DNA of 64,000 nucleotides, taken from IMG/VR virus record IMGVR_UViG_2634166338_000002; one strand, written 5' to 3'. Both the position numbers and the translations under genes were made by a program. The notes under the pieces were generated by a model. It saw nothing but the letters and a program-made list of their open reading frames with translations. It ran no database searches and was not told the origin of the DNA. This document shows, piece by piece, positions 6,665 through 24,981 of the stretch. The stretch is from a virus. Taxonomy: Duplodnaviria > Caudoviricetes. How positions within the stretch are numbered: the first letter of the stretch is position 1; each line of letters starts with the position of its first letter.

Positions 6665-7210
6665 ATGAGCGCGGAGAACGTCGGCAAGCACATGCCGGCC
6701 CGGGTCGGGTTGCACGATCTGGCACTCATGGCGGAGGCCGACGAGCATCACCGCTACGAACTCAGTGCGGAAGGCGTGTTGACGGTGTCCCCACTCCCGC
6801 CCCCGAGCCACGCAATGCTGGTCTCGCGGCTCTTCGCCTGGCTGACGGCCAACGGCCACACCGCCGATCAGGTCGTCGCCCACTGCGGCATCGATGTCGC
6901 CGGCGCCGGCCGGGTCCCGGACCTGACGGTCTGGGCGACAGGCCACCCACCGCGCGCTTCGCGGTCGCCGTACGCGGACGTCGAAGGGCTGCTGCTCGTC
7001 GTCGAAGTGGTTGCCGACGACTCCGTAACAACGGACTGGGTCGTCAAGCACCACGAATACGCCACCGCCGGGATCCCCCGGTACTGGCTCGTCGAACGCG
7101 ACCGGGAAACCACCGTTCACCAGCACCGGCTCCACCGCGACCGGTACGCCGTCGACGTGGCAGGCGGCCAGCCACTGACCCGGCTGCTGACCAGCAACCT
7201 CACCTTCTGA
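6665..7210 (+). CDS. Uma2-family endonuclease
   Basis: RYELSAEG, RVPDLTVW, LLVVEVV and K..EYATAGIPRYWLV. Confidence 0.88.
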   Translation: MSAENVGKHMPARVGLHDLALMAEADEHHRYELSAEGVLTVSPLPPPSHAMLVSRLFAWLTANGHTADQVVAHCGIDVAGAGRVPDLTVWATGHPPRASRSPYADVEGLLLVVEVVADDSVTTDWVVKHHEYATAGIPRYWLVERDRETTVHQHRLHRDRYAVDVAGGQPLTRLLTSNLTF

Positions 7211-9532: not shown

Positions 9533-11470
9533 TCACGCTGCAAGCAGCACACCCGTCTCGATCAGCACCGGAACCCAAGGATCGACGTGCTCGGCCAGGT
9601 CATTGACCTCGTGGCCGGTGGCCGCCGCTTCGTCGACGGTCTGCTCCATGCCGGATCCGGCATCGCCGTCGGTGCTGGCCGTTCTCCATCCCGCGAGCGG
9701 AGCCTGCGGGTCGTCGTCCACGATCCGTGTGGTCACGGCGGCGAGGGCCTGCTGCCGGGCCCGTTCGCGCTTGCCCGGATGGCTGGCGTTCCACTGCTCC
9801 ACCAACGCCGCCTCGGTGCCGTCCGGCATCGCGTTCGCTTCCGGTCCCACCGGTGCTGCCGCCTCTTCGGTGACCGGCACGTCGCCAGGCTCCTCCTCCC
9901 AGGTGCCTGCCGGGTGAACGGCGAGCCAGACCGGCAGGCCGAACGTGCGCTCCTGCCCGCTGGTCAGCGTGATCGTCGCGAACTCGCCGCGCTCGCGCCG
10001 GTTTTGCACCTCCGATACCGCGGCGACCGGGCCGCAGAACCCGCGCATCAGCCGGGTGTTCGGGCCCCACTCGTACCAGCCGGCGACTAGGTCGCCCGGC
10101 GCGACGGCGGGGATGTCGTGGGTGAGACGCCCGGTCCGGGCAGCAGGGCGGCGTTCCGGCTCGCGGTCGGGCATCCGCCATTGTGCCTTCAACTGGATGG
10201 GGATGAAGGAGGCCTGCACGTCGCGCGGCAGTTCTCCGGCGGTCAGCCGGTCGTAGACGTCGACGAACGCGGCCTGGACCTGTCGTTCGGTCGCCAGATC
10301 GGGCACGTTGGCCAGGAAGGCGTCGACCTCCGCTGCCGTTGCCTGCAGGTCTAGGCCGAGCACAAGGCAGCGGGCCATCGCGATTCGGATCCGCTGGCGC
10401 ATCGCCTCGTCGCCGTAGTCGTGGCGGTCCAGTTCGCGCGCCAGTCCGGGCCAGCGGGCCACCTTGCGGGCCAAGTCGACCGGCCAGGGTTCACCGTTGG
10501 GGGTGTCCCACTGCATGCCGTCGCGGCGGCGGCCGGCCACCTTGTCCCACGGGATCGTGCGGGGCCAGCCGTCGCTCTTGACGCTGACCGATTTCGCGTT
10601 GACCCGGGTCACCTCGTACCAGTCTCGGAACCCCGCGTGGCGTACCCGGTCGCCGACGACGAAGTGCTCTCGGACCCACGCGACAAACGTGCCTGCGGTC
10701 GCGTGTTCGTCGAGCTGGCCACGCCAGTAGGTGATCTTCTCCGTCTCCTCGGCGATCCACCGACGAAGGTCCTCACGACGTGAGCCGGTGGCCGCGGGGT
10801 GCTTCTCCACCTGGACGATCTCGCCGCGCCCGTTAGTGAAGTTGCGCTCGTACCCGTCAAGCTCGCGTTGGTAGCGCCGGATATCGGCTTCCAGTTTCTC
10901 GATGCGGCGCATGATCGTGCGCGGGCTGTCCCGGTGCGTCTGGTTAGCGGCCGCGCCCGCTGCACGCTCGGCGAGGTGCTCGCCCTTCTTCCACTGCTGG
11001 ACGGCCTTGTCGCGGTGGTTCTGCACGCGGTCGAGGGCGTTGAGGTGCGCTTTGCGTGAGTGGTGGCCGGGCGGTTGGACGGGCTGCCCGAACGGGATCC
11101 CGTCGGTTATGCGGCGGCTGGCGTCGCGGCGAGCGTCGCCGGCGGCGTGGGCCTTCCCGGCTCGCTCGGTGAGCCGGTCGACGCGGTCGTCGGCTCGTTC
11201 TCGGCGCTCGGCTTCAACAACGGCGGTGGGCCGGGCGGTGTTGTCGATCTCGATGATGACCTCGTGGCTGGCGGCCCGTAGCGCATCGGCTGCCGCGTTG
11301 ATGTACCAGGTCTTGGCGTCGCGGTCGCGGCTGACATTGATGCAGATGCCACGGTTGCGGCGCCACTCGAAGCCGTGCTTGCGGACGATCTCGTAGACGC
11401 CGTCGCCCTTCTTCGAGCCGGTGAGCAGGGTGCCGTCTTCGTGGGTGTGGGTGATGGTGATGGTGGCCAT
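9533..11470 (-). CDS. DUF3560-domain protein
   Basis: ITITHTHEDGTLLTGS.KGDG and IPFGQPVQPPGHHS. Confidence 0.8.
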   Translation of the reverse strand: MATITITHTHEDGTLLTGSKKGDGVYEIVRKHGFEWRRNRGICINVSRDRDAKTWYINAAADALRAASHEVIIEIDNTARPTAVVEAERRERADDRVDRLTERAGKAHAAGDARRDASRRITDGIPFGQPVQPPGHHSRKAHLNALDRVQNHRDKAVQQWKKGEHLAERAAGAAANQTHRDSPRTIMRRIEKLEADIRRYQRELDGYERNFTNGRGEIVQVEKHPAATGSRREDLRRWIAEETEKITYWRGQLDEHATAGTFVAWVREHFVVGDRVRHAGFRDWYEVTRVNAKSVSVKSDGWPRTIPWDKVAGRRRDGMQWDTPNGEPWPVDLARKVARWPGLARELDRHDYGDEAMRQRIRIAMARCLVLGLDLQATAAEVDAFLANVPDLATERQVQAAFVDVYDRLTAGELPRDVQASFIPIQLKAQWRMPDREPERRPAARTGRLTHDIPAVAPGDLVAGWYEWGPNTRLMRGFCGPVAAVSEVQNRRERGEFATITLTSGQERTFGLPVWLAVHPAGTWEEEPGDVPVTEEAAAPVGPEANAMPDGTEAALVEQWNASHPGKRERARQQALAAVTTRIVDDDPQAPLAGWRTASTDGDAGSGMEQTVDEAAATGHEVNDLAEHVDPWVPVLIETGVLLAA

Positions 11471-11612
11471 GTGTCGGGTGCCTCCGAATGGCAGGGCTTG
11501 CGGGCCTCGTGCTGCGGGCCGAGCCGGAAGGTGGTCGAGGTCGGGAACGCGATCGCCCGCCGCGGTTGGGATCCGGGGCGGGCGATCGCGGTGGTACGGG
11601 AGCAGATGGGGG

Positions 11613-12272
11613 TCAGCGGCGGAGAAGGTCGCGGGCGGCCTCGATGTGCACGCGCAGCAGAGACGCGGCCTCGTCGCCCTCCAGCAGGTATTCGGTGCCG
11701 TCGGGGAGCCGTTCGCCGTCGTGGTGAAGCTCGGCGAGGCCTTGGGCGAGGGTGAGCAGGCCGGCGAAGGTCGGCTGGGCCTTCGGTTGGTCGAGCGCTT
11801 CGCTGATGTCGAGGACGATCAGGTTCAGATGGCGGTCGAGGTGCGGGTCGGAGGTGGTGTCGAGCGCGCCGTTGACGCCTTGGAACGCGGTGTAGGCGAG
11901 TTCGAGGTGGTCTTCGACCGCGGTGGCGGCATCGCCGCTCAGGCCGGTGGGCGGGTTGCCGATGTCGTCGCCGATGTGGGCGGCGCCGGGGTAGTTGCGG
12001 GCCAGGTCGTAGCGGAATTCCGGGTTGAACCACAGCAGGGTGCCGTAGGCGTCGAACAGCAACAGGAGGGTGATGTTGGGCTGGCCGTCGTAGCCGGTGT
12101 CCTTGGTGGCGACCAGGCGGGCGGCCTGGTCACCCATCGTCGCTCGCAGGATGCGGGCGGCGGCGGCGAGTTCCTGGGTACCGCAGTGGTGGGCGGCGAG
12201 GTCTGCGGCGCTGCGGGCGGCGGTCAGGTCGGCGGTGTAGGCGGGGTTCGGCTGGGGCAGGTCGAAGATCAC
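11613..12272 (-). CDS. Hypothetical protein
   Basis: GTG start with GGAAGG RBS; natural-looking translation in this frame. Confidence 0.6.
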   Translation of the reverse strand: MIFDLPQPNPAYTADLTAARSAADLAAHHCGTQELAAAARILRATMGDQAARLVATKDTGYDGQPNITLLLLFDAYGTLLWFNPEFRYDLARNYPGAAHIGDDIGNPPTGLSGDAATAVEDHLELAYTAFQGVNGALDTTSDPHLDRHLNLIVLDISEALDQPKAQPTFAGLLTLAQGLAELHHDGERLPDGTEYLLEGDEAASLLRVHIEAARDLLRR

Positions 12273-12415
12273 GAAGTGCCTTCCTCGAGGAGGGTTCCGC
12301 CGGGCAACGCACCCGGCGGTATGCATGTTCGTGCAGCTCAGGACGTTGGAACTCGGCCTGTCCTGGAGGTTCGGAGACCGTAGCGGCAAGGGGGTCAGAG
12401 CCCAAGCGGCCCAGG

Positions 12416-13840
12416 TCAGCAGAGCGACGGCAGCAGCTCGGCGAGTACGCCCGCCCACGGATCCGCGTCCTGCCCGGCGGATGCGGCCCGCGCCGCGAGC
12501 GCGGCCTGCCGTGCCGCCCACTCCCGGGCCGCCTGCGGGCAGTTGCGTTCCCACTTCACCAGCCCGTGCGGGCACAGCTCTTCCCGCCGACGGGCCTGGT
12601 CCGACCACCCCGACGAGTCGATCGAGGTGGCCAGATGCCCGACCGTTTCCAGCAGCCGCCCCTTGCCGCCGAACAGGTGCAGCCGGGTCAGCCCGGCCGC
12701 GTGCAGCAACCGCACGATCGCCGCGGCCTCCGCGCGCGGGCGGCCGAGCAACGCGCCGACCCCGACCAGCGGTTCGGCGTGCAGGTCGACGCCGGCCCGC
12801 CGGTACATGTCCAGGTGCCGCAGGTAACCGGCCGGGGTCGCGCCGGTGAGCACCGGCAGGATCGGCACGCCGGTGTCCGCCGCCCGCAGCTGGATGACCG
12901 ACACCGTCGTGCGGATCTGATGCTCGAACTCGGTCAGGCCCGTCGCTGTCAGCGTCCGAGGGCTGGCGGGCCAGTCCTGCGGCGCCGCCCAGACGAGCCG
13001 GCCGATCTCCGCCGCGTACCGGCGGATGTCGGCCGCGTACCTGGCCGCCGACACCGTCCAGGTCCGGTTCTTCTCCAGGTGCCGGTACGCGCCCGAGTCG
13101 AGCACCCACGCGGCCGTGGCCACCGGCGGCGTCTTCACCGTGCGCAGCCGGTCGTAGGAGATGAGGACCCGGTCGCCTTCCCACAGGGCGCTGACATCCC
13201 CGCCGATCCACACCAGCAGGCCCGGCCCGGCGGTGTCGGTGTCCGCGGCCGCAGCGCCCGGCAGGCGAACGAACGTGTTGACCCGCCGCTGCTCGAAGAT
13301 GCTGCCGCAGCCCTCGTAGACGTCCTGCACGTACACGTCGAGCGGCTTCAACGCCGCATCCAGCCGGGCCAGGTACGCCTTCGGCAGCAGCGCGTACACC
13401 TCCGCGCGCCAGCCGATGCCGAATGCAGTGGCCTGCGCGGCGATCGTGGCCGCGCTGACCGCGCCAGGAACGTCGATACGCTGCTCGTACGGCTCCAGCA
13501 ACTGGTCCGGGTGGACCAGGCCGTACCTGCCGGACAGGATCAGGACCCGCGCCGGACTGCCGGACTCGGCGGTGTCCGCGGCCGCGGCCCGCTCGGCGGC
13601 CACCAAGGTGTGGTGGAACATCTGCCCCAGGTAGAGGTCCCGGGCACGCGCCGGGCGATTCCGTTTCTGCGCCCCGCAGGGGACCACATAAGTGATCCCG
13701 CCGTAGACCGGGCTTATGGCGTCGGCCGCCGTGGCGGTGTCCTGTTCGAGCCCCGACACCTCGTGCCGACGACAGTGCACCGGGTACGTCCCGGCGGTCA
13801 CGGTGCGCAGCAGGTCCACCTCCGTCCGCGGCCCGCTCAC
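12416..13840 (-). CDS. DUF6884-like domain fused to a DpdA/TGT-like DNA base-exchange transglycosylase
   Basis: N-terminal VVPCGAQK...ARDLY...ILSGRYGL; C-terminal WVLDSGAY, APQDW, PVLTG, VGVG, LHLFG and SIDS; GTGA overlap with the mom-like gene. Confidence 0.72.
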   Translation of the reverse strand: MSGPRTEVDLLRTVTAGTYPVHCRRHEVSGLEQDTATAADAISPVYGGITYVVPCGAQKRNRPARARDLYLGQMFHHTLVAAERAAAADTAESGSPARVLILSGRYGLVHPDQLLEPYEQRIDVPGAVSAATIAAQATAFGIGWRAEVYALLPKAYLARLDAALKPLDVYVQDVYEGCGSIFEQRRVNTFVRLPGAAAADTDTAGPGLLVWIGGDVSALWEGDRVLISYDRLRTVKTPPVATAAWVLDSGAYRHLEKNRTWTVSAARYAADIRRYAAEIGRLVWAAPQDWPASPRTLTATGLTEFEHQIRTTVSVIQLRAADTGVPILPVLTGATPAGYLRHLDMYRRAGVDLHAEPLVGVGALLGRPRAEAAAIVRLLHAAGLTRLHLFGGKGRLLETVGHLATSIDSSGWSDQARRREELCPHGLVKWERNCPQAAREWAARQAALAARAASAGQDADPWAGVLAELLPSLC

Positions 13841-14757
13841 GCCGCGATCGCCGGCTGCGCGCCGATGGTGGCGACGGCGCGGATCGGCGGGAGCGGAGCC
13901 GGACCGGTGATTTCGAACTCGTCGGGCCGCTTGGGGAACGGTAGCGACGGCAGTGCCACCGGGTACGCGCGCCGGGCCCAGCGGGGTCCGATCGTCCAGC
14001 AGTAGCGGTGGTTGCCTGGGTGCCACACCTTGCGGGCGCCGATCGCCGCCAACGCCACCGGGAGCCACTCCCAGCCCGGCATCCCGGCCGGCTTCGGCGG
14101 TGCGCCCATGTCGACGAGCCGGGCGATCGCCCCGTTCGCCCCCTGCTCCCCGCCGATGATCTTCTGGCGGCTCCGGTCGGGGAACACCAGGCCGCCGGGC
14201 AGCACCGTCAGTTTCCGGGCGGTGCCGCGGCCGGTGTAGACCGCGCCGAGGGCCTGATAGACCGTGCCGACGTGGCCCGGCATCAGCGGCCGGTCACCGA
14301 TGCGGCGGCGCACCGGGTCGGAGAAGGCGACCACTCCGCGTACGCCCATGCGGCTGATGTCGCGAAAGACGCGGGCGACGAACCACGATTCGGCGTTCGC
14401 AGGGACCCGGTCCAAGATCACCAGACGCGAAAGCTCCACGCTCTGCTGGTAGGGCTCGAGCGCTGGGAACGGGTTGGTCAGCACCGCCGGGCTCATCGGT
14501 ACGCCGAGCACGCAGGTGCCGACCAGGTGAGCGCCGTCCTCGATCAGGCCGTAGGGCAGCTTCGCGGCCGGCCAGGCGCGGCTGTAGTGGTGGGCGAGGG
14601 TGAACTTCCGTGCGGTGTCGTGGGCCAGCGGCACCACCTGGTAGCGGTGCGGCTGGAACGTCTCGTCGTCGACGTGCCGCCAGCAGTCCTCGTGCTGGTC
14701 CCAGCGCTGGCACCAGCCGTTGAACAGGTCGAGTTCCTCGGAAGAGGTCAGGTGCAT
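13837..14757 (-). CDS. Mom-like (GNAT-fold) DNA adenine-modification protein
   Basis: HHYS, VELSRLVILDRVPANAESWF, VAFSDP and GHVGTVYQA. Confidence 0.82.
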   Translation of the reverse strand: MHLTSSEELDLFNGWCQRWDQHEDCWRHVDDETFQPHRYQVVPLAHDTARKFTLAHHYSRAWPAAKLPYGLIEDGAHLVGTCVLGVPMSPAVLTNPFPALEPYQQSVELSRLVILDRVPANAESWFVARVFRDISRMGVRGVVAFSDPVRRRIGDRPLMPGHVGTVYQALGAVYTGRGTARKLTVLPGGLVFPDRSRQKIIGGEQGANGAIARLVDMGAPPKPAGMPGWEWLPVALAAIGARKVWHPGNHRYCWTIGPRWARRAYPVALPSLPFPKRPDEFEITGPAPLPPIRAVATIGAQPAIAA

Positions 14758-14868
14758 CAGTTCGCCTCCACAGTCGGCGGCGCCGCGCAGCTGCTGCGCG
14801 GCGCCGCAGAACGCTGCTGGCCACCCCGGAAGCGAGGTGGCCAGCAGCAGGAACCAGGGATGGGTGAG

Positions 14869-15183
14869 TCAGGCGCAGGACTGCGGGTCACTGTCGTACT
14901 CGGCCTCGATCGCCGCGACGTAGGCTCGCGCGTCTCCGGTGACGGCGTACGCCCGGACGTTGTTGCCCTCGACCAGCCGTAGGTAGGTGCCGGTCGGCAC
15001 GGTTGAGGCAGGTGTGACCAGCGGTTCGGTCAGCTCGTAGAGGTATGCAGCGATCCGCCAGTCAGCCTCCCCGCCGACCGCGACCGGCTCGCCGTCGTCG
15101 CGCAGCACCTCGCACAGTTGGTCGGGCAGAGCAGTGCCCCAGGCCAGGGCGTGGCGGGCGGGGCTCGTGTCAGGACTGTTCAT
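14869..15183 (-). CDS. Hypothetical protein
   Basis: RBS GGAGA; co-oriented in the operon. Confidence 0.55.
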   Translation of the reverse strand: MNSPDTSPARHALAWGTALPDQLCEVLRDDGEPVAVGGEADWRIAAYLYELTEPLVTPASTVPTGTYLRLVEGNNVRAYAVTGDARAYVAAIEAEYDSDPQSCA

Positions 15184-15204
15184 CGCGATGGTCTCCGTTC
15201 GTGG

Positions 15205-16428
15205 TTAGGCCGCGAGCGCGAGCGGGAGGTGGCTGGTCCAGGGATCGCGGAACTGCGCGACGGGCGTGTCCTCGGCTTGCGCCCACACCGCCGGGAATGC
15301 GGGTCCGACCTTCGTCGGCACGCCGGCCGGCGCGGCGACCAGGAACGCCTCCCGGCTCGGGTAGGGCGGCCCAGCACGGTGGGTCCAGGCCCGGACGATC
15401 TGGTGTTCGCCTTCGGGCTGGCCACCCATGGCCAGCACCGTCGCGCGGGTGGAGTCGTAGGTGCCGACGCAAACCGGTTCCAGCGAGCGGGCTCCCTGGC
15501 CCTTCGCGTAGCTGTCCCGGTTCTCCAGCCCGGACGGCTTCGTCTTGTCGAGGCGGCGAGCCGGATAGGCGCGGCGCACGTCGTAGATCGCCCACGGCTG
15601 GGCGGCCAGGTCGGCGTCGACGTGTTCGACGAGGTCACGCAGCCCGGCGAGGATGGCGACCTGCCGGGCGGACCGCTTCTTGCCGAACAGCAGCGACCGG
15701 GGATTGATCGCCACCGCGGTGTACTCCAGCCGCAGCGCCTGCTCGGCCCGATCGGGTTCGTTCCGCCATCGCTGGCACAGCAGATCCAGCTCAGGACCAG
15801 CCTGGAACGGGCAGTACCCACAACATGATCTTGACCAGGTCACCCCGAACGCGTCCTGTAGGTACGCCAGGCACGACTGCCGGTCCCAGCCCCACTCGAT
15901 CAGCGGATACCACGGGTTCCGGGCCGCGCTGGTGTAGCTGGTGTCCTTGCTCGAGCGGCGGACTTCTTCGGCGGCGAACCCGACGACGTGCCGGTACGCG
16001 GCGCCGCCCAGCGCGTCGGCGATCCACCAGTCGAGGACCTGACCCTTCGCCCGGTAGCTGCAAAATCGCCGGTGCCGGACCTGCTGCGGCACCACCCCGG
16101 CCGCGGTCTGCTCGTCGCTGAGCCGCCACCGGGTGCCGTGCATGATCATCCGGCTGGTGCTGTGCGAGTCCGACAGCACCTCGTACCCGGCGGTCTCGGA
16201 CTGCCCCGCCCGGGCCAGCATCACGTAGCGCACCGCGTGCTGGGCCATCACCGGCAGCAGGTACTTCTCCATGAGCATCCGGGTGGCCGTGTACTCGTCA
16301 CCAGTCATCGCGGTCAGCACGGTCAGGTCGCTCAAGTCGAAATCCCGCGACCGTGGATCAAGCAACCATCGGAGCAGAAGCGCCGCCGAATCGACGCCCA
16401 TCCCCATCGACATGACCACCCGGCTCAC
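15205..16428 (-). CDS. PP-loop adenine-nucleotide alpha-hydrolase (PAPS-reductase/QueC-like)
   Basis: N-terminal SMGMGVDS, RFCSYRAK, YPLIEWGWDR and SCCGYCPF; GTGA overlap with the upstream gene. Confidence 0.75.
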   Translation of the reverse strand: MSRVVMSMGMGVDSAALLLRWLLDPRSRDFDLSDLTVLTAMTGDEYTATRMLMEKYLLPVMAQHAVRYVMLARAGQSETAGYEVLSDSHSTSRMIMHGTRWRLSDEQTAAGVVPQQVRHRRFCSYRAKGQVLDWWIADALGGAAYRHVVGFAAEEVRRSSKDTSYTSAARNPWYPLIEWGWDRQSCLAYLQDAFGVTWSRSCCGYCPFQAGPELDLLCQRWRNEPDRAEQALRLEYTAVAINPRSLLFGKKRSARQVAILAGLRDLVEHVDADLAAQPWAIYDVRRAYPARRLDKTKPSGLENRDSYAKGQGARSLEPVCVGTYDSTRATVLAMGGQPEGEHQIVRAWTHRAGPPYPSREAFLVAAPAGVPTKVGPAFPAVWAQAEDTPVAQFRDPWTSHLPLALAA

Positions 16429-17528
16429 CCGGCCACCACCAGCAGATCGCCGGGCAGCGTCGGCATGGCGGGCACTCCCCGGCCGGCGTAGCGGTCGGTG
16501 AACACCAGCCCGGCATCCACGTCGACGCCGACGACCCGGCACTCCCGGGCGTTGCTGGGGCCGCGCACCGTGTCGCCGGGCCGGATCACCCAGCCGCGCT
16601 GGTCGCGAAGCACACGTACCGGGACACCGGCCTCGGCCATCAGCGCGGCCATCGGCCGGTTCTGCTGGAACCGGTGGCCGGTGCGGGCCTCGACGGCGGC
16701 GTACCGCCGGGCCAGGCCGGGCCGCAGCCGGATCGCGGTGAGCAGATCCCGCTTCGACCCGAGCACACACATTGAGCAGGACAAACGTGACATTCCCGCG
16801 TCGTACGGCCACGCCCACGGCAGCCCGGATGCCCGGATCTCCGCCCACACCTGCTCGACGGTCCAGTGGTGCACCGGATACCAGTCGGTGACGTGGCGGC
16901 GGGTCTTGTTCGACGCCGCGGTGTTCACCGCGCACGGCGGCCGGTTCGCGCGACTCTTCGATTCCTCGGCGCGGTAACCGAACACCTGCAGAATCTGCGC
17001 CGGCCGGTCGAGCGCGAGTTCCCGGGTGACCTCGGTCAGCAGCTTTTGCCCCGGCTCTCGCTTGAAGCCTGAGGTGCACCAGCGGCGACGGGCGTCCGGG
17101 AACATGCCCCGCCGCTCGACCTCGTCGAGCAGGTCCCCGCCCGCCCGGGAACGAACCTCGAACCGCAGCCCGAAGTGCCGGGCGTGAGCCTCGGCGATCT
17201 CCCGGCAGCCAGGCCGGTCACCGAACCGGTCGACGAGCCACGGCTCGAAGCCCTCGGCGACCAGGTCCGCGTCGGCGTCGCGGGTGCCCGGCCACACCAT
17301 GTCGCCGAGGTCGTTGTACTGCACGACCACTCGGTGCAGCATGCCCGCGGCCGCCGCCCGGTCGGCGCCGACGATCAGGGCGGCCGGGCCGTCCTTCCCG
17401 CCCGAATGATTGAAGATCCACTTGTCCACGTTGGTCGGGTCCGGGTCAGTGGGGCGTGGTGCTCGGTGGCCACCGGCGGATGCCGGAGCGATCAGCGACT
17501 TCCACGGGTCAGAGTTGGCAGACGACAG
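16425..17528 (-). CDS. PAPS-reductase-family (DndC/CysH-like) protein; start uncertain
   Basis: HSGGKDG, RRWCTSGFKREP, GYRAEESKSR and SRLSCSMC. Confidence 0.8.
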   Translation of the reverse strand: MSSANSDPWKSLIAPASAGGHRAPRPTDPDPTNVDKWIFNHSGGKDGPAALIVGADRAAAAGMLHRVVVQYNDLGDMVWPGTRDADADLVAEGFEPWLVDRFGDRPGCREIAEAHARHFGLRFEVRSRAGGDLLDEVERRGMFPDARRRWCTSGFKREPGQKLLTEVTRELALDRPAQILQVFGYRAEESKSRANRPPCAVNTAASNKTRRHVTDWYPVHHWTVEQVWAEIRASGLPWAWPYDAGMSRLSCSMCVLGSKRDLLTAIRLRPGLARRYAAVEARTGHRFQQNRPMAALMAEAGVPVRVLRDQRGWVIRPGDTVRGPSNARECRVVGVDVDAGLVFTDRYAGRGVPAMPTLPGDLLVVAG

Positions 17529-17613
17529 GGTGAGTCCTTTCGAGGAGAGGTCGGAGCAGCCTGGGGTGCCGCGCCAGGCGAGCCGGAGCGTCCTGACGCG
17601 GCGCGGAAAGTAA

Positions 17614-18204
17614 TCAGGCAGCAGCGGGCGCCGGTGATGCGGCGATGGTGCGGTGAACGCGAGCAGCGGCTTGTGCGTCGCTGCGGGTGTTCTCGTAGGC
17701 CTTCCAGCCGCAGGTGCACAGGGCGATCGATTGGTCGGGAGTGATCCATCGCCCGCAGGAGCCGTTGCTCTTGGCCCTGTACCGCTCTTGCCGCGCGGGG
17801 TCGAGGACGGTGCGGGTGACGTGGGTGAAGGTGGCCGGGGCCGGGTGTGGCGTGAGCAGCGTCCACGGCGCTGGGTGCCCGCCCTTGCACCGAGGCTCGC
17901 AGTAGCAGGGCGTCGCATCGGTGATCCGGCCGCGCAGCCAGGTTCCGGCGCGGGTCATCAGCGCGGTGGTGACCTCGTAGTGGTCAGGGAACGTGACCGC
18001 CCAGACCTGCTGGAGCGGGGTGATCACACGGTTGACCTCGATGATCGGATCGCAGTTGAGACCGCGCTCGCGCATCCGTCCGAGAGCTGTCAGGGCGGCC
18101 TTTTTGGTGGGCCATCCGCCGGGTTTGACGGCTGGTCGGCCGACCGCGTGGGGGAAGGTGGTCAGTTGGAGCGTGTACCCGGTCGCGGCCCGGGCCAGCG
18201 GCAT
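17614..18204 (-). CDS. Hypothetical Cys-rich protein
   Basis: CYC..C, CGRW and CTCGW motifs; RBS GAGGAAGGA. Confidence 0.6.
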   Translation of the reverse strand: MPLARAATGYTLQLTTFPHAVGRPAVKPGGWPTKKAALTALGRMRERGLNCDPIIEVNRVITPLQQVWAVTFPDHYEVTTALMTRAGTWLRGRITDATPCYCEPRCKGGHPAPWTLLTPHPAPATFTHVTRTVLDPARQERYRAKSNGSCGRWITPDQSIALCTCGWKAYENTRSDAQAAARVHRTIAASPAPAAA

Positions 18205-18238
18205 GCTCAGATCCTTCCTCTGCAGGACCGGGGGCGAG

Positions 18239-19201
18239 TCAGAAGGTGACCGCGACGATTTCGTCGAGCAGGACGCGGGTGCCGTCGGCGAACTGCACGG
18301 CTTCGGTGTCGAGACTCGTGATCTGCCCGGCGAACTTGGTGACGTAGGCGCTGCCCGTGTCTCCGGCGTACACCGTGGCGTCGCTGATGACCCAGCGTTC
18401 TTCGATCACCCGGGACAGCGCCGCGTGCAGCACTTTCTGGAAATCGCCGGGCCACTCGGGTCGGCTGGAGACGAAGCTGATGGCGCCCGGGCTGCACCGC
18501 CGTATCTCCGCTTCCTCGGCCTTGGCGATGATCGTGGGCGGTGTGGCGTGGTCTGGCTCCGGGTGCTGCGGCACGGCCAGTGAGAAGTTGACCGTGAGCC
18601 ACTGGTGCATCGCGTTGGTTGCGGCGTCGCGTAGGGCCTGCTCGGTGACCGCGTCGTTGGCGCCGTTGTGCACCCGGGGGAACACGGTCTGGGTCACGTG
18701 GTCCCAGAACGCGTTGAGCGCGGAGTCGACCGCATCGCCGCCGGCGAGCGCGTGGTAGAGCTTCTCCCGCTGCGCTCGGCGGGCCACTACCTCGTGGTGC
18801 AGCGCTGCCGCCCGCTGGGCGATCTCCTCCTCGGTGTCGGTGTCGCGGACCCGGTAGACGGGCACGACATCGACGGTGTCCTGCACGATCTCCACCTCGC
18901 CCGCGACGGCGCCGCTGATGACTTCGCCGTTGAGGCGGCATCGCTGACCGGGCCCGACGAGCACCGTGTATCGAGGTGTGCCGTATTCGTCGGCAGTGAC
19001 GCCGACGAATACGGCTTCGATGCCGCTGCCGCTGTCGGCGGCGATCGCGTTGACGCCCATCATGCGGATCAGCCGGGCGACGGTGTCCAGGTTGAACACC
19101 TTCGCGGGCGCTAGCTGCATCACGCGGGCGAGGGCTTGTGTTCCCGGTGTGATTGCGGTGTCGCCGGTCGCATCCGTTGGGGCACCGTTGACTGCTTCCA
19201 T
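18239..19201 (-). CDS. Hypothetical multidomain protein
   Basis: RBS AAGGA; shares an AFW...FP...W..N module with ORF 25089-25973. Confidence 0.65.
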   Translation of the reverse strand: MEAVNGAPTDATGDTAITPGTQALARVMQLAPAKVFNLDTVARLIRMMGVNAIAADSGSGIEAVFVGVTADEYGTPRYTVLVGPGQRCRLNGEVISGAVAGEVEIVQDTVDVVPVYRVRDTDTEEEIAQRAAALHHEVVARRAQREKLYHALAGGDAVDSALNAFWDHVTQTVFPRVHNGANDAVTEQALRDAATNAMHQWLTVNFSLAVPQHPEPDHATPPTIIAKAEEAEIRRCSPGAISFVSSRPEWPGDFQKVLHAALSRVIEERWVISDATVYAGDTGSAYVTKFAGQITSLDTEAVQFADGTRVLLDEIVAVTF

Positions 19202-19282
19202 CGAGCGTGTCCTTTCGCGAGGTGGCGGCGGGAAGGTGTGGACCGGCCGGAGAAGGTGCGCGCCATCTCCTGCCGGGATCGG

Positions 19283-19717
19283 TCAGGCAGGCACGGCGGT
19301 GGTGGTCGGTGCGATGCAGCGGCGTACGTAGGGCGGAAGGTCGCAGCGCTGGCCCGGCTGGGCTCCGCAGGAGTGCGGCAGAGCTCGGAGCGCGGTGAGC
19401 GTGGTGTCCTGGTGGAAGCCGAGTTCGCGGCCGCCCGGCCGGGCACCGCGCTGGAATGAACGGCAGCCCGGGATCAGAGCGAACAGGCCGCGTCCGTCCA
19501 GCCTCGCCGCCGGGCCGGTCAGGGTGCCCCGCACGTTGATGACCTTGTGGTTCCAGGCTCGCCACCGCTCGTCGGTCCAAGTGGTGACGGTGAATGTGGA
19601 CTCGTCGTCGGGCAGCAGGATCTGGGTGCCGAAGCCGGGCATGCCGAGGGCGGGCGGGCTGGAGGGATGGCACGCCCGGGGCATGGACAGCAGGTCCAGC
19701 ACGGTGATCGCGATCAT
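19283..19717 (-). CDS. Hypothetical protein
   Basis: RBS GAGGA; co-oriented with neighbours. Confidence 0.6.
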   Translation of the reverse strand: MIAITVLDLLSMPRACHPSSPPALGMPGFGTQILLPDDESTFTVTTWTDERWRAWNHKVINVRGTLTGPAARLDGRGLFALIPGCRSFQRGARPGGRELGFHQDTTLTALRALPHSCGAQPGQRCDLPPYVRRCIAPTTTAVPA

Positions 19718-19806: not shown

Positions 19807-21015
19807 TCATTCGTCGCTGCCGAGCCCGTCGACGATCACGGCGATCGCCTCCGGGATTGACGAGTTCGGGATCGCGTCGTCCAGGCTGTACACGTCGTCA
19901 TCGGTCAGGGACCGGCCCGCCCACTCCTGCAGCTGCTCCCGGGTGATCTCCACCGTGAGCTGGCCGAACCGGTCGACGGGGACAAACTCCGTGGCCGCCT
20001 GGGGCGTGTGCCACGAGCCGCGAAGATCGCTGGTTCCGCCGCAGGGCTGGCCGTCCTCCCGCGCCAGGTGCTCGTCGTCGGCGGGGACGAACGTCTCGTG
20101 GCACCGGCGGCACGACGCTTCGGGGATGGCCCCGGCCGGCGTCGTCGGCTGCGGTTCGGAGGACGACTCGGTGACCGCGCGGCGGTCGCCCGCGGGCTGA
20201 TGGTCGACGCCCCGCAGGCGGTCCGTCCCCCGGCCGTCCCGCCGTTCGTACCAGGCGGCGGCGGACTTGGCAGCGGCGAGATCGGGGTAATGCCCGAGCC
20301 GCTGCTTCCCCGCCCGCCCCTCCTCGTTTTCGAGGTGGAACGTCAGCGCCCATTCCGGCTCGTCGTTCGGCTCGTCGAGATGTGAGCCGCTGTCGTGGGT
20401 GATGGCGTAGAAGGCGCTGGTGAACGGCGCATAGTGCCGACTGCTCTGAGCGGTGATCCTGTCGGCGCCCAGAGGGTCTTGGTCGAGCCAGGTCAGCTCC
20501 TGGACGAGGACCGGCACGCCAGGCGAAGTGAAGGTCTCGTTGTCCTCGCCGTTCTCGTCGGGCCAGATCACGACCTGGACGGGGCGGTCCTCGTAGGCCA
20601 TGACCACGCCGACGTACTCGCGGCCATCCACTTCGACGGTGAGCGCGGCGTCCTCGTCGAGGTGGAAGTCGGCGTAAACGCCGTTACTGCTGGTGAGCCG
20701 GACCCGGGCCATTCTGCCGCGCACGCCGGCGGGTGCCTGTCCCGTCTGCTCGTACTCCTCGGCGGCAGCCTTCGCGCTGTCGAGGTCGATGTAGCGGCCC
20801 AGCGGTATCGAGTCGGCGTCGCCCTCGTCGTCCTCGTGGACGTAGTCGAGGTGCCACTGCGCGCGCTCGTTCGGTCGGCCGGGCCGGAATCCGCTGTCGT
20901 GCTCGATCGTGTAGTGCGCGCCGGTGTAGGGGGCGTCGTGCGGGCGCTTGCTGACGGCTTCGATCAGGTCGTCGCTGTGGCTGTCGGTCCAGGTGAGCGG
21001 GGCGGGTTTGGTCAT
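19807..21015 (-). CDS. Acidic hypothetical protein with a duplicated ~85-aa domain
   Basis: LTW...AP(Y/F)T.A.Y.I.HDSG...PN...W.L...LG.Y.DL..AK.AA occurs twice. Confidence 0.7.
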   Translation of the reverse strand: MTKPAPLTWTDSHSDDLIEAVSKRPHDAPYTGAHYTIEHDSGFRPGRPNERAQWHLDYVHEDDEGDADSIPLGRYIDLDSAKAAAEEYEQTGQAPAGVRGRMARVRLTSSNGVYADFHLDEDAALTVEVDGREYVGVVMAYEDRPVQVVIWPDENGEDNETFTSPGVPVLVQELTWLDQDPLGADRITAQSSRHYAPFTSAFYAITHDSGSHLDEPNDEPEWALTFHLENEEGRAGKQRLGHYPDLAAAKSAAAWYERRDGRGTDRLRGVDHQPAGDRRAVTESSSEPQPTTPAGAIPEASCRRCHETFVPADDEHLAREDGQPCGGTSDLRGSWHTPQAATEFVPVDRFGQLTVEITREQLQEWAGRSLTDDDVYSLDDAIPNSSIPEAIAVIVDGLGSDE

Positions 21016-21098: not shown

Positions 21099-23111
21099 TC
21101 AGAACTGCGGGTGTGGGATGAGAACCTCGGCAACGGCCTCGCCGAGCCACTGGGCGGCGTTGCAGCTCACGGCGTTTCCGGCCTGCATCATCTGCTCGCC
21201 GTTGCCGCCGAGGACGAGGTAGTCGTCCGGGAAGGTCTGAGCTTTCAGGCTTTCCCGCGCCTTGAGCATTCGGTAGTAGGCGTCGAAGACGTCGTCGTCG
21301 TTGAGGATCGCCAGTTCGGCTTCGGTGGCGGTGACCAGCGCGTGGCGGTCGTGGGTGGTGACGGTGCCGAGCGGGTGTCCGGCAAGGTCGGCCTGGCCGT
21401 TGCCGTAGTAGGGCACGACCAGGGCGTTGTGCCGGGCGGTGGTGATGGTGGCCAATGGATCCTCGACCGACTGCGCTTCGGCGTGGTTGCGCTGGACGTC
21501 GATGAACGCGCCGGGGTACGGGGTGACCAGGGCTTCGCAGCCCTTCCCGTTGGCCATCACAGTGCGGCCGGGCCCGCCGATGAGGTCGATGGGCTCTTCG
21601 GCCCAGGTGCCGCCGACGGGGACGGACATCGGCGGGAAGACCACGGCGTCGCCCTGCTTGACGGTCTGGGCGGCGAGCGGTTCGTCGCTGAGTGCGTGCA
21701 GGCGCAGGCTGTCGTGGTTGAGCGCCACCCGGAACGGCTGGGGCGGAGTGACGATGCCGTGGTGGTCGACGGTGGTGACGGTGCCGAGCGGCTCGTCGTG
21801 CACGCCCTTGACCATGCGCCGGGGGTCCGGGTCGCTGAAGTTCTTGACGTAGAAGACGTTCGGCGGGACGACGGCGCTGAGAGTTGGTGAGCACTGGGCG
21901 GTGGTCATCGGCGTCTGGTCGGCCGGCCACGCCCGCAGGGCGCCGGGGCGTTCGTGGGTGTTCCCGGCGACCGTGGCGATCATCCGGCGGCGGCCGTACT
22001 TGCGCATCCCGGCACGGATGCGGCCCATCGTCTTCGGGGCGAGACCCTCGGGCTTCTTGGCGGTGCGGGGAAGGTCACCGATCCGAATGCCGACATCCGA
22101 CCAGTCGATGGCGGTGGCAGCGGGCAGGACGTACGGCTCGACGCGCTGGCCGCACCCGCCGTTCGGGCAGGTGTACCAGTATTGGCCGTACGAGGAGTTC
22201 GGGTTGCGCCGGTAGCGGCCGACAAGGAACTTGCGCTGGTGCATCTTCGGCAGCCACGTCTGCAAGCCGTGGACCTGGCGCTCGCAGTTGAAGCACCAGG
22301 ACACCGGCTTCGGGGTGACGTCCGGGCTGCGGCCGATGTCCTTGCGGACGAAGACGATGTAGAGCCGGTCACGCCATTGGGGGGCGTAGGGGATGCCGTT
22401 GCCGCCGACGTGCGCGCTGTTCACGGACGCGAGCTGGTAGTGGTAGCCCAGGCGCTCCATACCGCTGAGCCACCAGTCGAACAACTCCCAGCGCTCGGCG
22501 ACATCGGGGACGTTCTCGATGATGATCGCCTTGAAGCGCCACACTTCGGTGGCGCGGATGACGTCCATGAAGGTCGCTCGGGTGCGCTCGCGGCCCTTTT
22601 CCGAGACGTGGCCGAGCATCTCGACCATGTCGAAGCCGCCGCCCTCGTAGCGCTTCGGGCCGCCGTTGCCGCCCGCGGGGCTGAGTTCGGTGCAGATCGG
22701 GGACGCCCACAGCACGTCGGCGCCGCGCGGCAGGTAGCGGAAGTCGTAGTTGTTGACGTCCGCGCACAGGTGCTCGGCGTTGGTGAAGTTAGCGGCGTGG
22801 GTGTCGATGGCGGTGCGCCAGTGGTTCGCGGCGAGCAGGAGTTCGTACCCGGCGTTACTCAGGCCGATCGAGGAGCCGCCCGCGCCGCAGAAGATGTCGA
22901 CGAACTTGAGGCCGTTGCTGCGGCGTGGGGTCCACAGCTGGTTCCCTGCGGCCAGGTAGTTGAGGCGCTGTTGTTCGCGCCGGGCGACGGCTTGGGCGTC
23001 GCGGAGCTTGGTGGTGGCCACCTCCGCGCTGACCTGGTTACGGACGGCCTGACGGGTGAAGGCTTCGATCTTGCTGTTGGCGGGTTTGGCGGCTACGGCA
23101 GTCGCGGACAT
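21099..23111 (-). CDS. DNA cytosine-C5 methyltransferase with a long repetitive target-recognition region
   Basis: FCGAGG, ASPIC, IENV, PQWRDRLY and QAGNAV. Confidence 0.9.
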   Translation of the reverse strand: MSATAVAAKPANSKIEAFTRQAVRNQVSAEVATTKLRDAQAVARREQQRLNYLAAGNQLWTPRRSNGLKFVDIFCGAGGSSIGLSNAGYELLLAANHWRTAIDTHAANFTNAEHLCADVNNYDFRYLPRGADVLWASPICTELSPAGGNGGPKRYEGGGFDMVEMLGHVSEKGRERTRATFMDVIRATEVWRFKAIIIENVPDVAERWELFDWWLSGMERLGYHYQLASVNSAHVGGNGIPYAPQWRDRLYIVFVRKDIGRSPDVTPKPVSWCFNCERQVHGLQTWLPKMHQRKFLVGRYRRNPNSSYGQYWYTCPNGGCGQRVEPYVLPAATAIDWSDVGIRIGDLPRTAKKPEGLAPKTMGRIRAGMRKYGRRRMIATVAGNTHERPGALRAWPADQTPMTTAQCSPTLSAVVPPNVFYVKNFSDPDPRRMVKGVHDEPLGTVTTVDHHGIVTPPQPFRVALNHDSLRLHALSDEPLAAQTVKQGDAVVFPPMSVPVGGTWAEEPIDLIGGPGRTVMANGKGCEALVTPYPGAFIDVQRNHAEAQSVEDPLATITTARHNALVVPYYGNGQADLAGHPLGTVTTHDRHALVTATEAELAILNDDDVFDAYYRMLKARESLKAQTFPDDYLVLGGNGEQMMQAGNAVSCNAAQWLGEAVAEVLIPHPQF

Positions 23112-23445: not shown

Positions 23446-24981
23446 TTAGATCGCCGCGCCCAGGTCCAGGTGCATCTGGCCGAACATGACGCCCCACGGG
23501 TCCGAGGTCTCGGCTACCTCGATCGGCGGCGCGTACCGGTCGCTGCGCCACAGCAGAGCCGCCCGGTCGACGTCGTCCAGATCGGCGTCGACGTCGAGCC
23601 GGTCGGCATACGCCTGCAGGTATCGGGCCGCGAGCCGGTCCCGGCCACCGCGCCACGCCTGCTGCACGTCGATCAGGTCGGTTTCGGGGGTGTGTTCGGA
23701 GAGACCGAACGCGGCGCGCATGGCGGCCTGTACCCGGGTGTGCCGCTCGCGTTCGAGGTCGCTGACCGGCAGCATCCCGCCGCTCCAGAGCAGCAGGCTC
23801 CATACCGACACCGGCACGGTCTTCGTCGGCGGTGACTTCCAGATCTCATGGGCGGCCTTCTCCGCGGCCCGTTTGGTGTCGCTGGTGTTGGCACAGGTGA
23901 TGCACAGGCCGATGGTCGGGCCGACCTTGCCGTCCTCGTCAGCGTCCAGGCTGGCGGGCGCGGCGTGCTCGCCGAGGGCCATGTCGTCGTTGCCGTCGAA
24001 CTGCCACAGCAGCCACCCGCATCCCCAGCACTGCGCCCGGTACCGGAACACCCGCTCCCGGTTGGTGCTGGGGTCGTGCCACACCTGCACCGGTGCTTCC
24101 TGCACCGCCCGGGTGGTGAGCCACGGGTAGCGCACCGGCACCGGTTCGATCGCGTCCGGGTAGTGCCGGAACAGGTATGGCGGCAGCCCTTCATGGCCGC
24201 GCACCGGCCGGGCCATCCAGATCACGCACGTCTTGAGCCCGTCGAAGGTGTCGTCCGGCAGGTTCTCCCATCCTCCGAAGTCCTCGACGAGCCGCCGTAC
24301 GTCCTTGTGCTGGCGGTCGCGGCGGAAGGAGAAACCGTTCGGCACCACCGCGACCAGGCGGCCGCCGGGTTCGAGCATGTTCCACGCCGTCATCACGTGG
24401 TCGATCCAGAGGGCGGGTTGACCCGGCGCCGAGAACGGCGGGTTCATGACCACTCCGTCGAACAGTTCGGCCCTGCCCGGGCCGGCCGCGTACTCCTCGA
24501 ACGTCGTGTCGATCACTGTGACCCGGTCAGGGTGGCCGTCCAGTTTGGCGGCGCGGGCGGTGTTCGGCTCGACGGCGACGACGTGCAGTTCGTCGTTGGC
24601 CTCCAGGATCGCCCGGACGATCTGGCCGTCCCCGGCTGACGGCTCCAGGATCCGCGATCCGGGAGGCATCCGGGCCAGGTCGCTGAACGGGCAGGTGGTG
24701 GTCAGTTGCTCGGCAAGCCAGTCCGGGGTGGGGACGTAGCCGTCATCCTTGGTCGCGGAGAAACACATGCCGGAGGCGATGACCGCGCGGAGTGCCGGGC
24801 GTGGGTCGAACTCGAAGATGAACGCGCTGCGGTTGGTCTCGTAGCGGCCGCCGAGCAGGATGAGCACCCTGGCCACGGATCTCCACACATCACCGGCGAG
24901 TTGGCCGGTGATGTGGATACGGTCGCGGGCGGTCTGAGCGTTGGCCAGCGCGGCTCGTGTCCGCGCGTCGACCTGATGCAT
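23446..24981 (-). CDS. SAM-dependent amino (N6A/N4C) DNA methyltransferase
   Basis: ILEPSAGDG and VVMNPPF; C-terminal Cys motifs. Confidence 0.85.
   Translation of the reverse strand: MHQVDARTRAALANAQTARDRIHITGQLAGDVWRSVARVLILLGGRYETNRSAFIFEFDPRPALRAVIASGMCFSATKDDGYVPTPDWLAEQLTTTCPFSDLARMPPGSRILEPSAGDGQIVRAILEANDELHVVAVEPNTARAAKLDGHPDRVTVIDTTFEEYAAGPGRAELFDGVVMNPPFSAPGQPALWIDHVMTAWNMLEPGGRLVAVVPNGFSFRRDRQHKDVRRLVEDFGGWENLPDDTFDGLKTCVIWMARPVRGHEGLPPYLFRHYPDAIEPVPVRYPWLTTRAVQEAPVQVWHDPSTNRERVFRYRAQCWGCGWLLWQFDGNDDMALGEHAAPASLDADEDGKVGPTIGLCITCANTSDTKRAAEKAAHEIWKSPPTKTVPVSVWSLLLWSGGMLPVSDLERERHTRVQAAMRAAFGLSEHTPETDLIDVQQAWRGGRDRLAARYLQAYADRLDVDADLDDVDRAALLWRSDRYAPPIEVAETSDPWGVMFGQMHLDLGAAI

Follow-up and report, generated by a model that had tools for sequence, protein, structure and literature searches.

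A prophage cassette of putative DNA-modifying enzymes that includes a DpdC-like/DpdA fusion

The 64,000-nucleotide stretch of IMG/VR virus record IMGVR_UViG_2634166338_000002 (the window, by which we mean the whole of the DNA analysed) occupies bases 7,668,281-7,732,280 of a single-contig, 10.65-Mb actinomycete chromosome of ~70% GC, and it contains, between positions 12416 and 17429 of its minus strand, a cassette of genes whose products resemble enzymes of DNA modification. These are two PP-loop enzymes (P5 and P4), a small conserved open reading frame (ORF), a relative of the phage Mu protein Mom, and a protein in which a DUF6884 domain is fused to the DNA transglycosylase DpdA, transcribed in that order. 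We lean towards the explanation that the cassette is a collection of independently acting DNA modifiers, which would place stacked anti-restriction marks on the phage DNA; we infer both the enzymatic activities, from the protein families, and the independence of the steps.

Each part of the cassette belongs to or borders on a known kind, namely DpdA/DpdC, Mom, the DndC-like PAPS (phosphoadenosine phosphosulfate) reductases and orphan methyltransferases. In the literature searched we found no description of the fusion architecture, of a DpdC-like/DpdA fusion as a phage gene in hosts lacking que genes, of the P4 family, or of a recurrent cassette that also holds Mom and P5. The locus bears on a question open since 2019, the role of DpdA in 76 phages with no 7-deazaguanine pathway in genome or host (PMC6884629), and together with a full copy in a cultured strain, Actinoplanes sp. 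URMC 104 (locus L006), it offers a DpdA with a built-in DpdC-like domain and candidate partner genes. With five or six different DNA-modifying enzymes predicted in one operon, it would also be a compact natural toolkit for the layered protection of mobile elements and a possible source of new DNA-marking enzymes; P4 is a promising candidate for an anti-restriction or DNA-modifying enzyme of a new kind.

The cassette and its prophage

The four enzyme genes lie in one leftward run, as had been proposed in a preliminary description of the region, and both an ORF listing and a gene call based on GC content at third codon positions (GC3) agree with this; the minus-strand run extends from ~35.6 kb down to 9.5 kb. 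The two pairs said to be coupled by GTGA overlaps are indeed found in the sequence, with P4 starting at GTG 16428 and P5 stopping at TGA 16425, and with the fusion starting at GTG 13840 and the Mom-like gene stopping at TGA 13837. The upstream limit requires correction, since position 17528, taken previously as the start of P5, is a CTG codon. The open frame continues to 17918, and because homologues align from residues 1-2 of the form beginning at GTG 17429, this appears to be the likelier start. The set of ORFs stands as regards the four enzymes, but the small ORF at 14869-15183, which is kept at the same position and at 59-66% identity in loci L006 and L111, had been left out; it has no family match in Pfam, PHROGs, NCBIfam or PADLOC. 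The cassette genes, the fusion's domains and two methyltransferases further upstream in the same operon are as follows.

16425..17429, minus strand: P5, PAPS-reductase/DndC-like PP-loop enzyme (PF01507, phrog_424; 334 aa from GTG 17429)
15205..16428, minus strand: P4, PAPS-reductase-fold protein of a family without a Pfam model (407 aa; phrog_424 and AlphaFold2 model)
14869..15183, minus strand: small conserved ORF between P4 and Mom (79-104 aa)
13837..14757, minus strand: Mom-like putative DNA adenine modification enzyme of the GNAT fold (306 aa; PF25680, phrog_1384)
12416..13840, minus strand: DUF6884 (DpdC-like) and DpdA fusion (474 aa as drawn; Pfam, phrog_1279)
13343..13690, minus strand: DUF6884 domain of the fusion (aa 51-166; PF21818)
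12485..13168, minus strand: DpdA (TGT-fold) domain of the fusion (aa 225-452; PF23859)
21099..23111, minus strand: predicted orphan C5 cytosine DNA methyltransferase (670 aa; PF00145, 2.4e-30; PADLOC MTase_II, 8.4e-31)
23446..24876, minus strand: predicted second DNA methyltransferase, of the MTS/N6-type fold (476 aa; PF05175, 1.5e-5; phrog_6263, 6.3e-23; PADLOC mad2, 2.8e-17)

The element is a chromosomally integrated prophage of a temperate actinophage, with the cassette in its early leftward operon. Genes for a large terminase (phrog_9, 2.2e-60) and a portal protein (phrog_104, 1.2e-84) are present on the plus strand in the right part of the window, and a tyrosine integrase gene is found at its left edge, confirming the phage context given in the preliminary description. 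Matches to Streptomyces plasmids had first suggested a conjugative plasmid or an integrative and conjugative element, an identity that was dropped when the terminase and portal genes were found; the cassette itself occurs on both phage and plasmid/conjugative elements. Scanning 11400-19400 for minus-strand promoter and terminator consensus sequences yielded no site, a result that is uninformative at 70% GC.

Family assignments and conserved residues

The TGT-like (tRNA-guanine transglycosylase), Mom/GNAT and PP-loop-plus-CxxC signatures reported earlier, and the four family assignments that accompanied them, are supported by Pfam, PHROGs and, for P4, the fold of an AlphaFold2 (AF2) model. Both domains of the fusion are recognised by Pfam on one 474-aa chain, DpdA (PF23859) at 9.2e-41 with 140 bits against a cut-off of 27, and DUF6884 (PF21818) at 7.4e-14 with 52.5 bits against a cut-off of 30; phrog_1279 is matched at 2.8e-44. 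No PADLOC Dpd model and no NCBIfam model is matched, nor is PF01702 (TGT), either in the Pfam scan or in the genome search, and sequence searches of the Protein Data Bank (PDB) returned nothing useful with the fusion alone, chance-level rows only with its profile, and no sequence match to the DpdA structure 7UI4. The AF2 model, built with 37 homologues, has a predicted local distance difference test score (pLDDT) of 85.9, and it is this same 7UI4 that Foldseek returns as its best match (E 2.5e-5, prob 1.00), with more than 30 TGT structures ranked behind it. The TGT barrel on which the preliminary description had staked its account of the 12416 ORF is thus present in the model.

Conservation among the 37 homologues is consistent with this assignment. 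The motifs LDSG (D248), LHLFG (H388) and SIDS (D408) are invariant, as is D289 (QDWP), and H342 is nearly so. In the Salmonella DpdA, Asp95 is the general acid/base, Asp130 and His181 read the base, and Asp256 is the nucleophile (PMC10164549), and the spacing of D248/D289/H342/D408 is 41/119/53 residues as compared with 35/126/51 in 7UI4 numbering. Based on motifs, spacing and the Foldseek match rather than on residue-level superposition, these four residues appear to correspond to Asp95, Asp130, His181 and Asp256 of the Salmonella enzyme.

In the DUF6884 domain the motifs CxxxK (C55-x3-K59) and LSxxxG (L102-S103-x3-G107; LSAxxG in the family), both named in PMC11701544, are invariant or nearly so. 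The Pfam curators regard DUF6884 as a distant relative of YaaA (PF03883) (PMC11701544), and DpdC has been filed under DUF6884 (PMC11888242) as well as under DUF328/PF03883 (PMC12839542); some homologues of the fusion also match PF03883. Because DUF6884 is distantly related to DpdC and YaaA, both halves of the fusion have their counterparts among the enzymes of the Dpd modification module, one half being DpdC-like and the other DpdA. The preliminary description was therefore right about the architecture of a DUF6884-DpdA fusion, but it did not recognise DUF6884 as a relative of DpdC and YaaA (PMC11701544, PMC11888242, PMC12839542). DpdC converts preQ0 in DNA to the amide ADG, as shown for the Salmonella protein in vitro (PMC10164549).

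At its N-terminus the fusion has ~37 residues that come out as disordered in the model, and homologues begin only near residue 40; this segment is probably disordered or not translated. The architecture is a populous one, with more than 100 clusters at 90% identity that bear automatic names only, and its holders are mainly Micromonospora, Actinoplanes, Verrucosispora and soil metagenomes.

Comparison with the Dpd module of Salmonella Montevideo (PMC10164549) shows a shared TGT-fold DNA transglycosylase in which the catalytic Asp pair and the base-recognising Asp and His are kept, along with a partner domain of the YaaA/DUF6884 superfamily, to which DpdC also belongs. It differs in that the cassette has both parts fused in one chain and carried in a prophage, and in that no DpdB ATPase, dpdD-K restriction genes or preQ0 genes were found in its element or host. 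Bacterial DpdA needs the ParB-like ATPase DpdB as a partner, whereas phage DpdA works without it (PMC6884629); among the scanned window ORFs, several of which match no family, none has a ParB/DndB-like (DpdB) match.

The Mom-like protein matches PF25680 at 1.6e-17 (64.3 bits against a cut-off of 27.1) and phrog_1384 at 1.6e-28, the latter profile spanning residues 32-280, and aligns by BLASTP with Mu Mom at 26% identity (E 5e-6); a PDB sequence search returned nothing useful. Its S124 aligns exactly with Ser124 of Mu Mom, the catalytic serine of that enzyme (PMC13219725), in a column that is Ser in 18 and Thr in 10 of 28 family sequences, and the adjacent E123 is invariant in all 28. Mu Mom acts as a single enzyme, taking glycine from Gly-tRNAGly to make N6-carbamoylmethyl-adenine, and suffices alone for its modification (PMC13219725), so a Mom-type enzyme needs no PP-loop partner. 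Mu Mom also requires for activity a helix-turn-helix-like insertion at residues ~175-209. The cassette protein thus resembles Mu Mom (PMC7261163, PMC13219725) in its Pfam family, in the aligned Ser124 and Glu123, and in being a phage gene among anti-restriction functions, but it is only 24-26% identical, is longer (306 aa as compared with 241) with a longer C-terminal part, and has no Com regulator. The Mom-like family, with 1484 representative clusters, is far larger than that of the fusion. In one related locus (L112, 2211-6663) an insertion of ~4.4 kb interrupts the Mom-like gene, with the alignment broken at residues ~124/~123 and with P4, the fusion and a DUF3560 gene intact; it is probably a mobile element that inactivates Mom.

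P5, a canonical PP-loop enzyme, matches PAPS_reduct (PF01507) at 2.1e-8, with 34.8 bits against a cut-off of 22.5, and phrog_424 at 2.6e-25. Among PADLOC models its best match is BrxP (2.2e-11), followed by DndC (1.1e-7), and the CysH model TIGR00434 is matched at 0.0033 only; scores on the DndC equivalog are far under its cut-off (27 bits as compared with 290). The PP-loop motif SGGKDG has S9, G11, K12 and D13 nearly invariant in 32 homologues, in which C118 is invariant and the CxxC pair C218/C221 nearly so. We note that P5 has a C-terminal extension of ~65 residues (~268-334; 16425-16625, minus strand) that is kept by its closest relatives only, most homologues being 250-300 aa in length, with ~80% query coverage, and without it.

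P4 is the more divergent of the two, with no Pfam or NCBIfam match at E <= 0.01, a phrog_424 match at 4.4e-14 and a weak one to PADLOC SspD (2.4e-4). Its AF2 model has a pLDDT of 93, and in a wide structure search it aligns with the PAPS reductase 7rge over 162 residues (Z 11.9, root-mean-square deviation 3.7), with the [4Fe-4S] tRNA thiolase NcsA (6scy, Z 10.0), with APS reductases (Z 9.7-9.8; 2goy, Z 9.7) and with the 6-thioguanine enzyme YcfA (Z 9.2); Foldseek with the whole model gave rows at E > 1e-3 only. In the model, residues 1-219 form a PAPS-reductase/PP-loop fold and residues ~279-395 a C-terminal beta-rich domain. The PP-loop, S7-x-G9-x-G11-x-D13-S14 (SxGxGxDS), is two residues longer than the canonical SGGxDS, and G11, D13, C123, K128, E155, C203 and C206 are invariant in 40 homologues. 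The cysteine triad C123/C203/C206 is spaced as in P5 and recalls Fe-S PP-loop enzymes; both proteins are probably Fe-S enzymes. Because alignment of the two families with hhalign brings together the C..K, EE, YPL and CxxC motifs, P4 and P5 are, by this comparison, distant paralogues. The P4 family has ~1000 members in protein-atlas clusters named 'hypothetical protein', and a tblastn search of 50,697 phage records with P4 gave no match.

Both proteins share with the phosphorothioation enzymes DndC, SspD and BrxP, and with a PAPS reductase by which a phage counteracts Dnd (Piel et al. 2022, cited in PMC13551039), the PP-loop fold, the pattern of one cysteine plus a CxxC, and carriage by phages or mobile elements. 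They differ from these in occurring as two tandem paralogues with no DndA/D/E or SspA/B/C nearby; P4 differs further in its expanded PP-loop, its novel C-terminal domain and its lack of a Pfam model. No DndA, DndD, DndE, SspA, SspB or SspC partner was recognised in those ORFs that were scanned against Pfam, PHROGs and PADLOC.

Assortment across loci and competing explanations

The stacking of DNA modifications by phages is an established idea. In the arrangement that we propose, each enzyme would add its own mark to the phage DNA, so blocking many restriction systems, and host DNA would be marked as well if the operon is expressed in the lysogen. Four layers can be envisaged. The two orphan methyltransferases, one of the C5-cytosine and one of the N6 type, would provide the first, and the Mom-like enzyme the second, by loading N6 of adenine with an aminoacyl group donated by a charged tRNA, much as Mu Mom does with Gly-tRNAGly. 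In the third, P5 and P4, as members of the DndC/SspD/BrxP branch, would use ATP to activate an oxygen in DNA and replace it, most likely with sulfur, giving either a backbone phosphorothioate or a thio-base. In the fourth, the TGT barrel of the fusion would swap a DNA guanine for another base through a covalent Asp intermediate, and the DUF6884 domain might flip and process the inserted base, by analogy with the conversion of preQ0 to ADG by DpdC. Protection of this sort has precedents, in that phage DpdA protects DNA from restriction (PMC6884629) and a phage PAPS reductase is cited as helping its phage to escape the Dnd system of a host (Piel et al. 2022, cited in PMC13551039).

Support for this arrangement comes from the manner in which the genes assort across ~120 related loci, viewed from P4 (80 loci in isolate genomes and metagenome-assembled genomes), from the fusion (metagenome, viral and Logan contigs, with counts based on the 12 loci in which 3 kb or more of sequence precede a full-length fusion) and from cultured phages. 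Among the 80 P4 loci, tblastn finds P5 in 25, DpdA/DUF6884 in eight and Mom in five, and 72 of them lack a DpdA within 10 kb of P4. When the genes are clustered, P5 is one of the four nearest neighbours of P4 in 23 of 74 loci and the gene immediately upstream in 20. Apart from P5, the genes found most often near P4 in isolates encode a TrwC relaxase, SSB, DprA and a ParB_N protein, a neighbourhood that corresponds to the establishment or leading region of conjugative elements. In L036 and L066, P4 adjoins a standalone DUF6884 gene and no DpdA domain is present. From the side of the fusion, P4, P5 or Mom is present in eight of the 12 loci and none of them in the other four; a scan of viral contigs with the fusion gave 12 loci, mostly of single-domain relatives. 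The closest DpdA genes of cultured phages, those of the mycobacteriophages KiSi and Agent47, occur by themselves, without Mom, PAPS reductase or que genes.

Gene order is shuffled as well. The order P5-P4-small ORF-Mom-fusion is shared by the window, L006 (in which the whole cassette is syntenic) and L111, but L109 has P5-Mom-P4-fusion-C5 methyltransferase, all with 4-nt overlaps, L110 has P4-fusion-C5 methyltransferase, L121 has Mom-P4-fusion, the Streptomyces plasmid L001 has DpdA-Mom-P4, and the plasmid L002 has P4-Mom-P5 without DpdA. Homologues of the C5 methyltransferase, an enzyme whose independence is not in doubt, adjoin the fusion in L109, L110, L123, L125, L134, L138 and L140, about as often as P4 does, and the orphan C5 and N6-type methyltransferases share the cassette about as often. 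Assortment of this kind is typical of a cassette whose modules are interchangeable, each of use by itself, and collect in anti-defence hot spots. An obligate multi-step pathway would be expected to show all-or-none occurrence. The neighbourhood conservation looked for in the preliminary description is therefore seen insofar as the genes recur together, but there is no all-or-none linkage. Of the two interpretations offered there, the one of stacked marks fits these data, with shuffled order, genes often missing singly and methyltransferases in the same cassette, whereas the one of a single pathway of base exchange, ATP-dependent activation and acylation is unsupported, given that Mu Mom needs no partner (PMC13219725) and that P4 mostly occurs without DpdA or Mom. 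In passing we note that L109, a 45.9-kb Logan contig, also encodes an AcrVA2-like protein (PF26125; 15662-16381, minus strand) a few kb from the run, which fits an anti-defence neighbourhood.

The substrate of the fusion presents a puzzle. The host genome, 100% complete by marker genes, contains no QueC, its sole PF06508 match being the PP-loop of argininosuccinate synthase (ArgG), and QueE (TIGR04508), TGT and the importer YhhQ were likewise not found in it. There is one PTPS gene, located beside a glycosyltransferase, and DpdA occurs only in this prophage. No que or dnd partner genes are present among the scanned window ORFs, nor is folE found in the window (FolE was not searched for elsewhere in the genome). 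The lack of a preQ0 pathway and of dnd partners reported previously thus holds for these ORFs, and in the case of QueC, QueE, TGT and YhhQ the absence extends to the entire genome. QueC is absent also from the genomes holding L006, L007 and L061; counted apart from L006, two of four other genomes with related clusters lack it. A role for P4 or P5 as a QueC analogue making preQ0 was considered and rejected, the upstream genes not being found (no QueE, no clustered QueD, and no folE in the window).

A similar situation has been described for the 76 phages that encode DpdA only, including those of mycobacteria, which lack the whole pathway; in DNA of one of these, the phage Orion, none of dPreQ0, dADG, dG+, dPreQ1 and dQ was found (PMC6884629). 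These phages (group 3 of Hutinet et al. 2019; PMC6884629) resemble the prophage in having an actinobacterial phage DpdA with neither phage nor host encoding que genes, and the nearest cultured-phage matches of the fusion are mycobacteriophage genes annotated 'queuine tRNA-ribosyltransferase'. They are unlike it in that the cassette DpdA bears DUF6884 at its N-terminus and is accompanied by Mom-like and PAPS-reductase-like genes, whereas that of KiSi and Agent47 is alone. Two possibilities follow for the fusion: it is idle except when supplied with a 7-deazaguanine, be it from outside or by a different host, or its substrate is a base that has never been sought.

Several of these observations weigh against the arrangement of stacked marks. 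P4, P5, Mom and DpdA are near each other far more often than unrelated genes are, often with 4-nt overlaps, and functional coupling could also explain their co-location; some cooperation is possible, especially of P5 with P4 and of P4 with the fusion. P5 and P4 are without the DndA/D/E or SspB/C partners required by the known phosphorothioate writers, so that the chemistry given for them is a guess; the PP-loop of P4 is, in addition, non-canonical. The fusion has no known substrate, as the complete host genome lacks QueC, QueE, TGT and YhhQ, and Orion, a DpdA-only mycobacteriophage with a similar host, contains none of the five 7-deazaguanines tested (PMC6884629); because of these two circumstances the fusion layer may be idle, or may have an activity other than the one that analogy suggests.

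A rather unlikely alternative is that the four enzymes form one joint pathway to a single, undescribed and preQ0-independent hypermodified base. P5 and P4 might, for example, adenylate and then thiolate or aminate a guanine-type base, either free or in DNA, which DpdA would insert or exchange and which DUF6884, Mom or both would finish. The genes do recur together in at least nine loci and in three orders (for example in the window, L006, L109, L111, L112, L121, L131 and L133), 4-nt stop/start overlaps are frequent and run across all four genes in L109, and the gene that immediately precedes the fusion is P4 in L109, L110, L121, L131 and the P0170 contig. The absence of QueC from the hosts of the window, L006, L007 and L061 means that the DpdA domain would need another source of base, and the fold of P4 resembles that of YcfA. 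Each gene is nonetheless dispensable in some loci, as illustrated by the four fusion loci without P4, P5 or Mom, the 72 P4 loci without a nearby DpdA, and the standalone DUF6884 genes beside P4; moreover, Mom belongs to a family far bigger than that of the fusion and in Mu acts alone, and unrelated genes are expected to co-locate in anti-defence hot spots, where the C5 methyltransferase shows the same pattern. A further proposal, and quite an unlikely one, is that in actinophages lacking que genes DpdA, with P5 and P4 and perhaps DUF6884, installs a new guanine-derived DNA base such as a thiolated or aminated purine and not a 7-deazaguanine. If true, this would explain the absence of the known 7-deazaguanines in DpdA-only actinophages such as Orion.

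We consider it improbable that the cassette is instead the self-marking half of a prophage-borne defence, with the lysogen's DNA marked and restriction partners encoded elsewhere attacking unmarked invaders, in the manner of Dpd, Dnd, BREX or BRC systems. DpdA/DpdC, DndC/SspD/BrxP and methyltransferases are the writers of known modification-dependent defence systems (PMC10164549, PMC12839542), BrxP is the best PADLOC match of P5, and a putative Uma2-family endonuclease is encoded at 6665-7210. Among the scanned operon ORFs, however, several of which match no family and might include a new effector, there is no recognisable restriction nuclease, helicase-nuclease, DpdB, DpdD-K, DndD/E/FGH, SspB/C/E or other Ssp partner, PglZ or BrxC, and the same genes occur in conjugative leading regions (with SSB, ParB_N and relaxase) and on phage-sized contigs, which fits counter-defence. 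The BRC (BREX-related capture) systems, a computational proposal in which TGT and GNAT enzymes would give DNA its 7-deazaguanine and acyl marks with neither DpdB nor DpdC (PMC12839542), are alike in having a TGT-family enzyme beside a GNAT-fold enzyme, but they are defence islands around HerA/FtsK, STAND NTPases and nucleases; such partners were not found here, and the cassette is phage-borne.

That P5 and P4 are true PAPS/APS reductases of auxiliary sulfur metabolism and that the TGT-fold protein acts on tRNA is highly improbable, in spite of the annotation of PF01507 and phrog_424 as PAPS reductase, an 'auxiliary metabolic gene', and the fact that the TGT fold is primarily one of tRNA enzymes, since the nearest defence-library relatives of P5 are the DNA writers BrxP and DndC and not CysH, the fusion matches the DpdA model at 9.2e-41 and not PF01702 and is joined to a DNA-binding YaaA-like domain, and the neighbours are DNA methyltransferases, Mom, DnaN and DUF3560.

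Neighbouring genes

Other genes of the window that bear on the setting of the cassette are listed here.

9533..11470, minus strand: DUF3560 protein, downstream in the operon (645 aa; PF12083, 1e-23)
17614..18075, minus strand: conserved Cys-containing gene just upstream of P5 (153-196 aa), without a family match
19807-21015, minus strand: 402-aa early-operon protein with a weak match to the Imm1 immunity domain
31904-34843, minus strand: DnaN fusion protein heading the leftward operon (979 aa)
6665-7210, plus strand: Uma2-family putative endonuclease near the integrase end (1.9e-17)
45958-47202, minus strand: IS110-family transposase (DEDD_Tnp_IS110, 2.4e-25)

Two of these genes recur with the cassette elsewhere. 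DUF3560 homologues travel with it in L006, L109, L111, L112 and L123, and homologues of the gene at 17614..18075 (54-64% identity) are directly upstream of the fusion in the metagenome loci L114 and L117, with one in L006; the latter gene may thus be part of the cassette as well.

At 670 aa the C5 methyltransferase is of unusual length, with its methylase motifs split between residues 68-270 and ~613-665; the ~340-aa insert has a faint FMN_bind_2 match only and may be a large target-recognition or accessory domain. The DnaN protein contains all three beta-clamp domains in its first ~420 residues, followed by a ~550-aa tail that matches no family, and homologues of it are found near P4 in L040 and L064. 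Within the prophage, the IS110 transposase separates the early arm from the packaging genes, and GC content is lower at 38-44 kb and 54-58 kb of the window.

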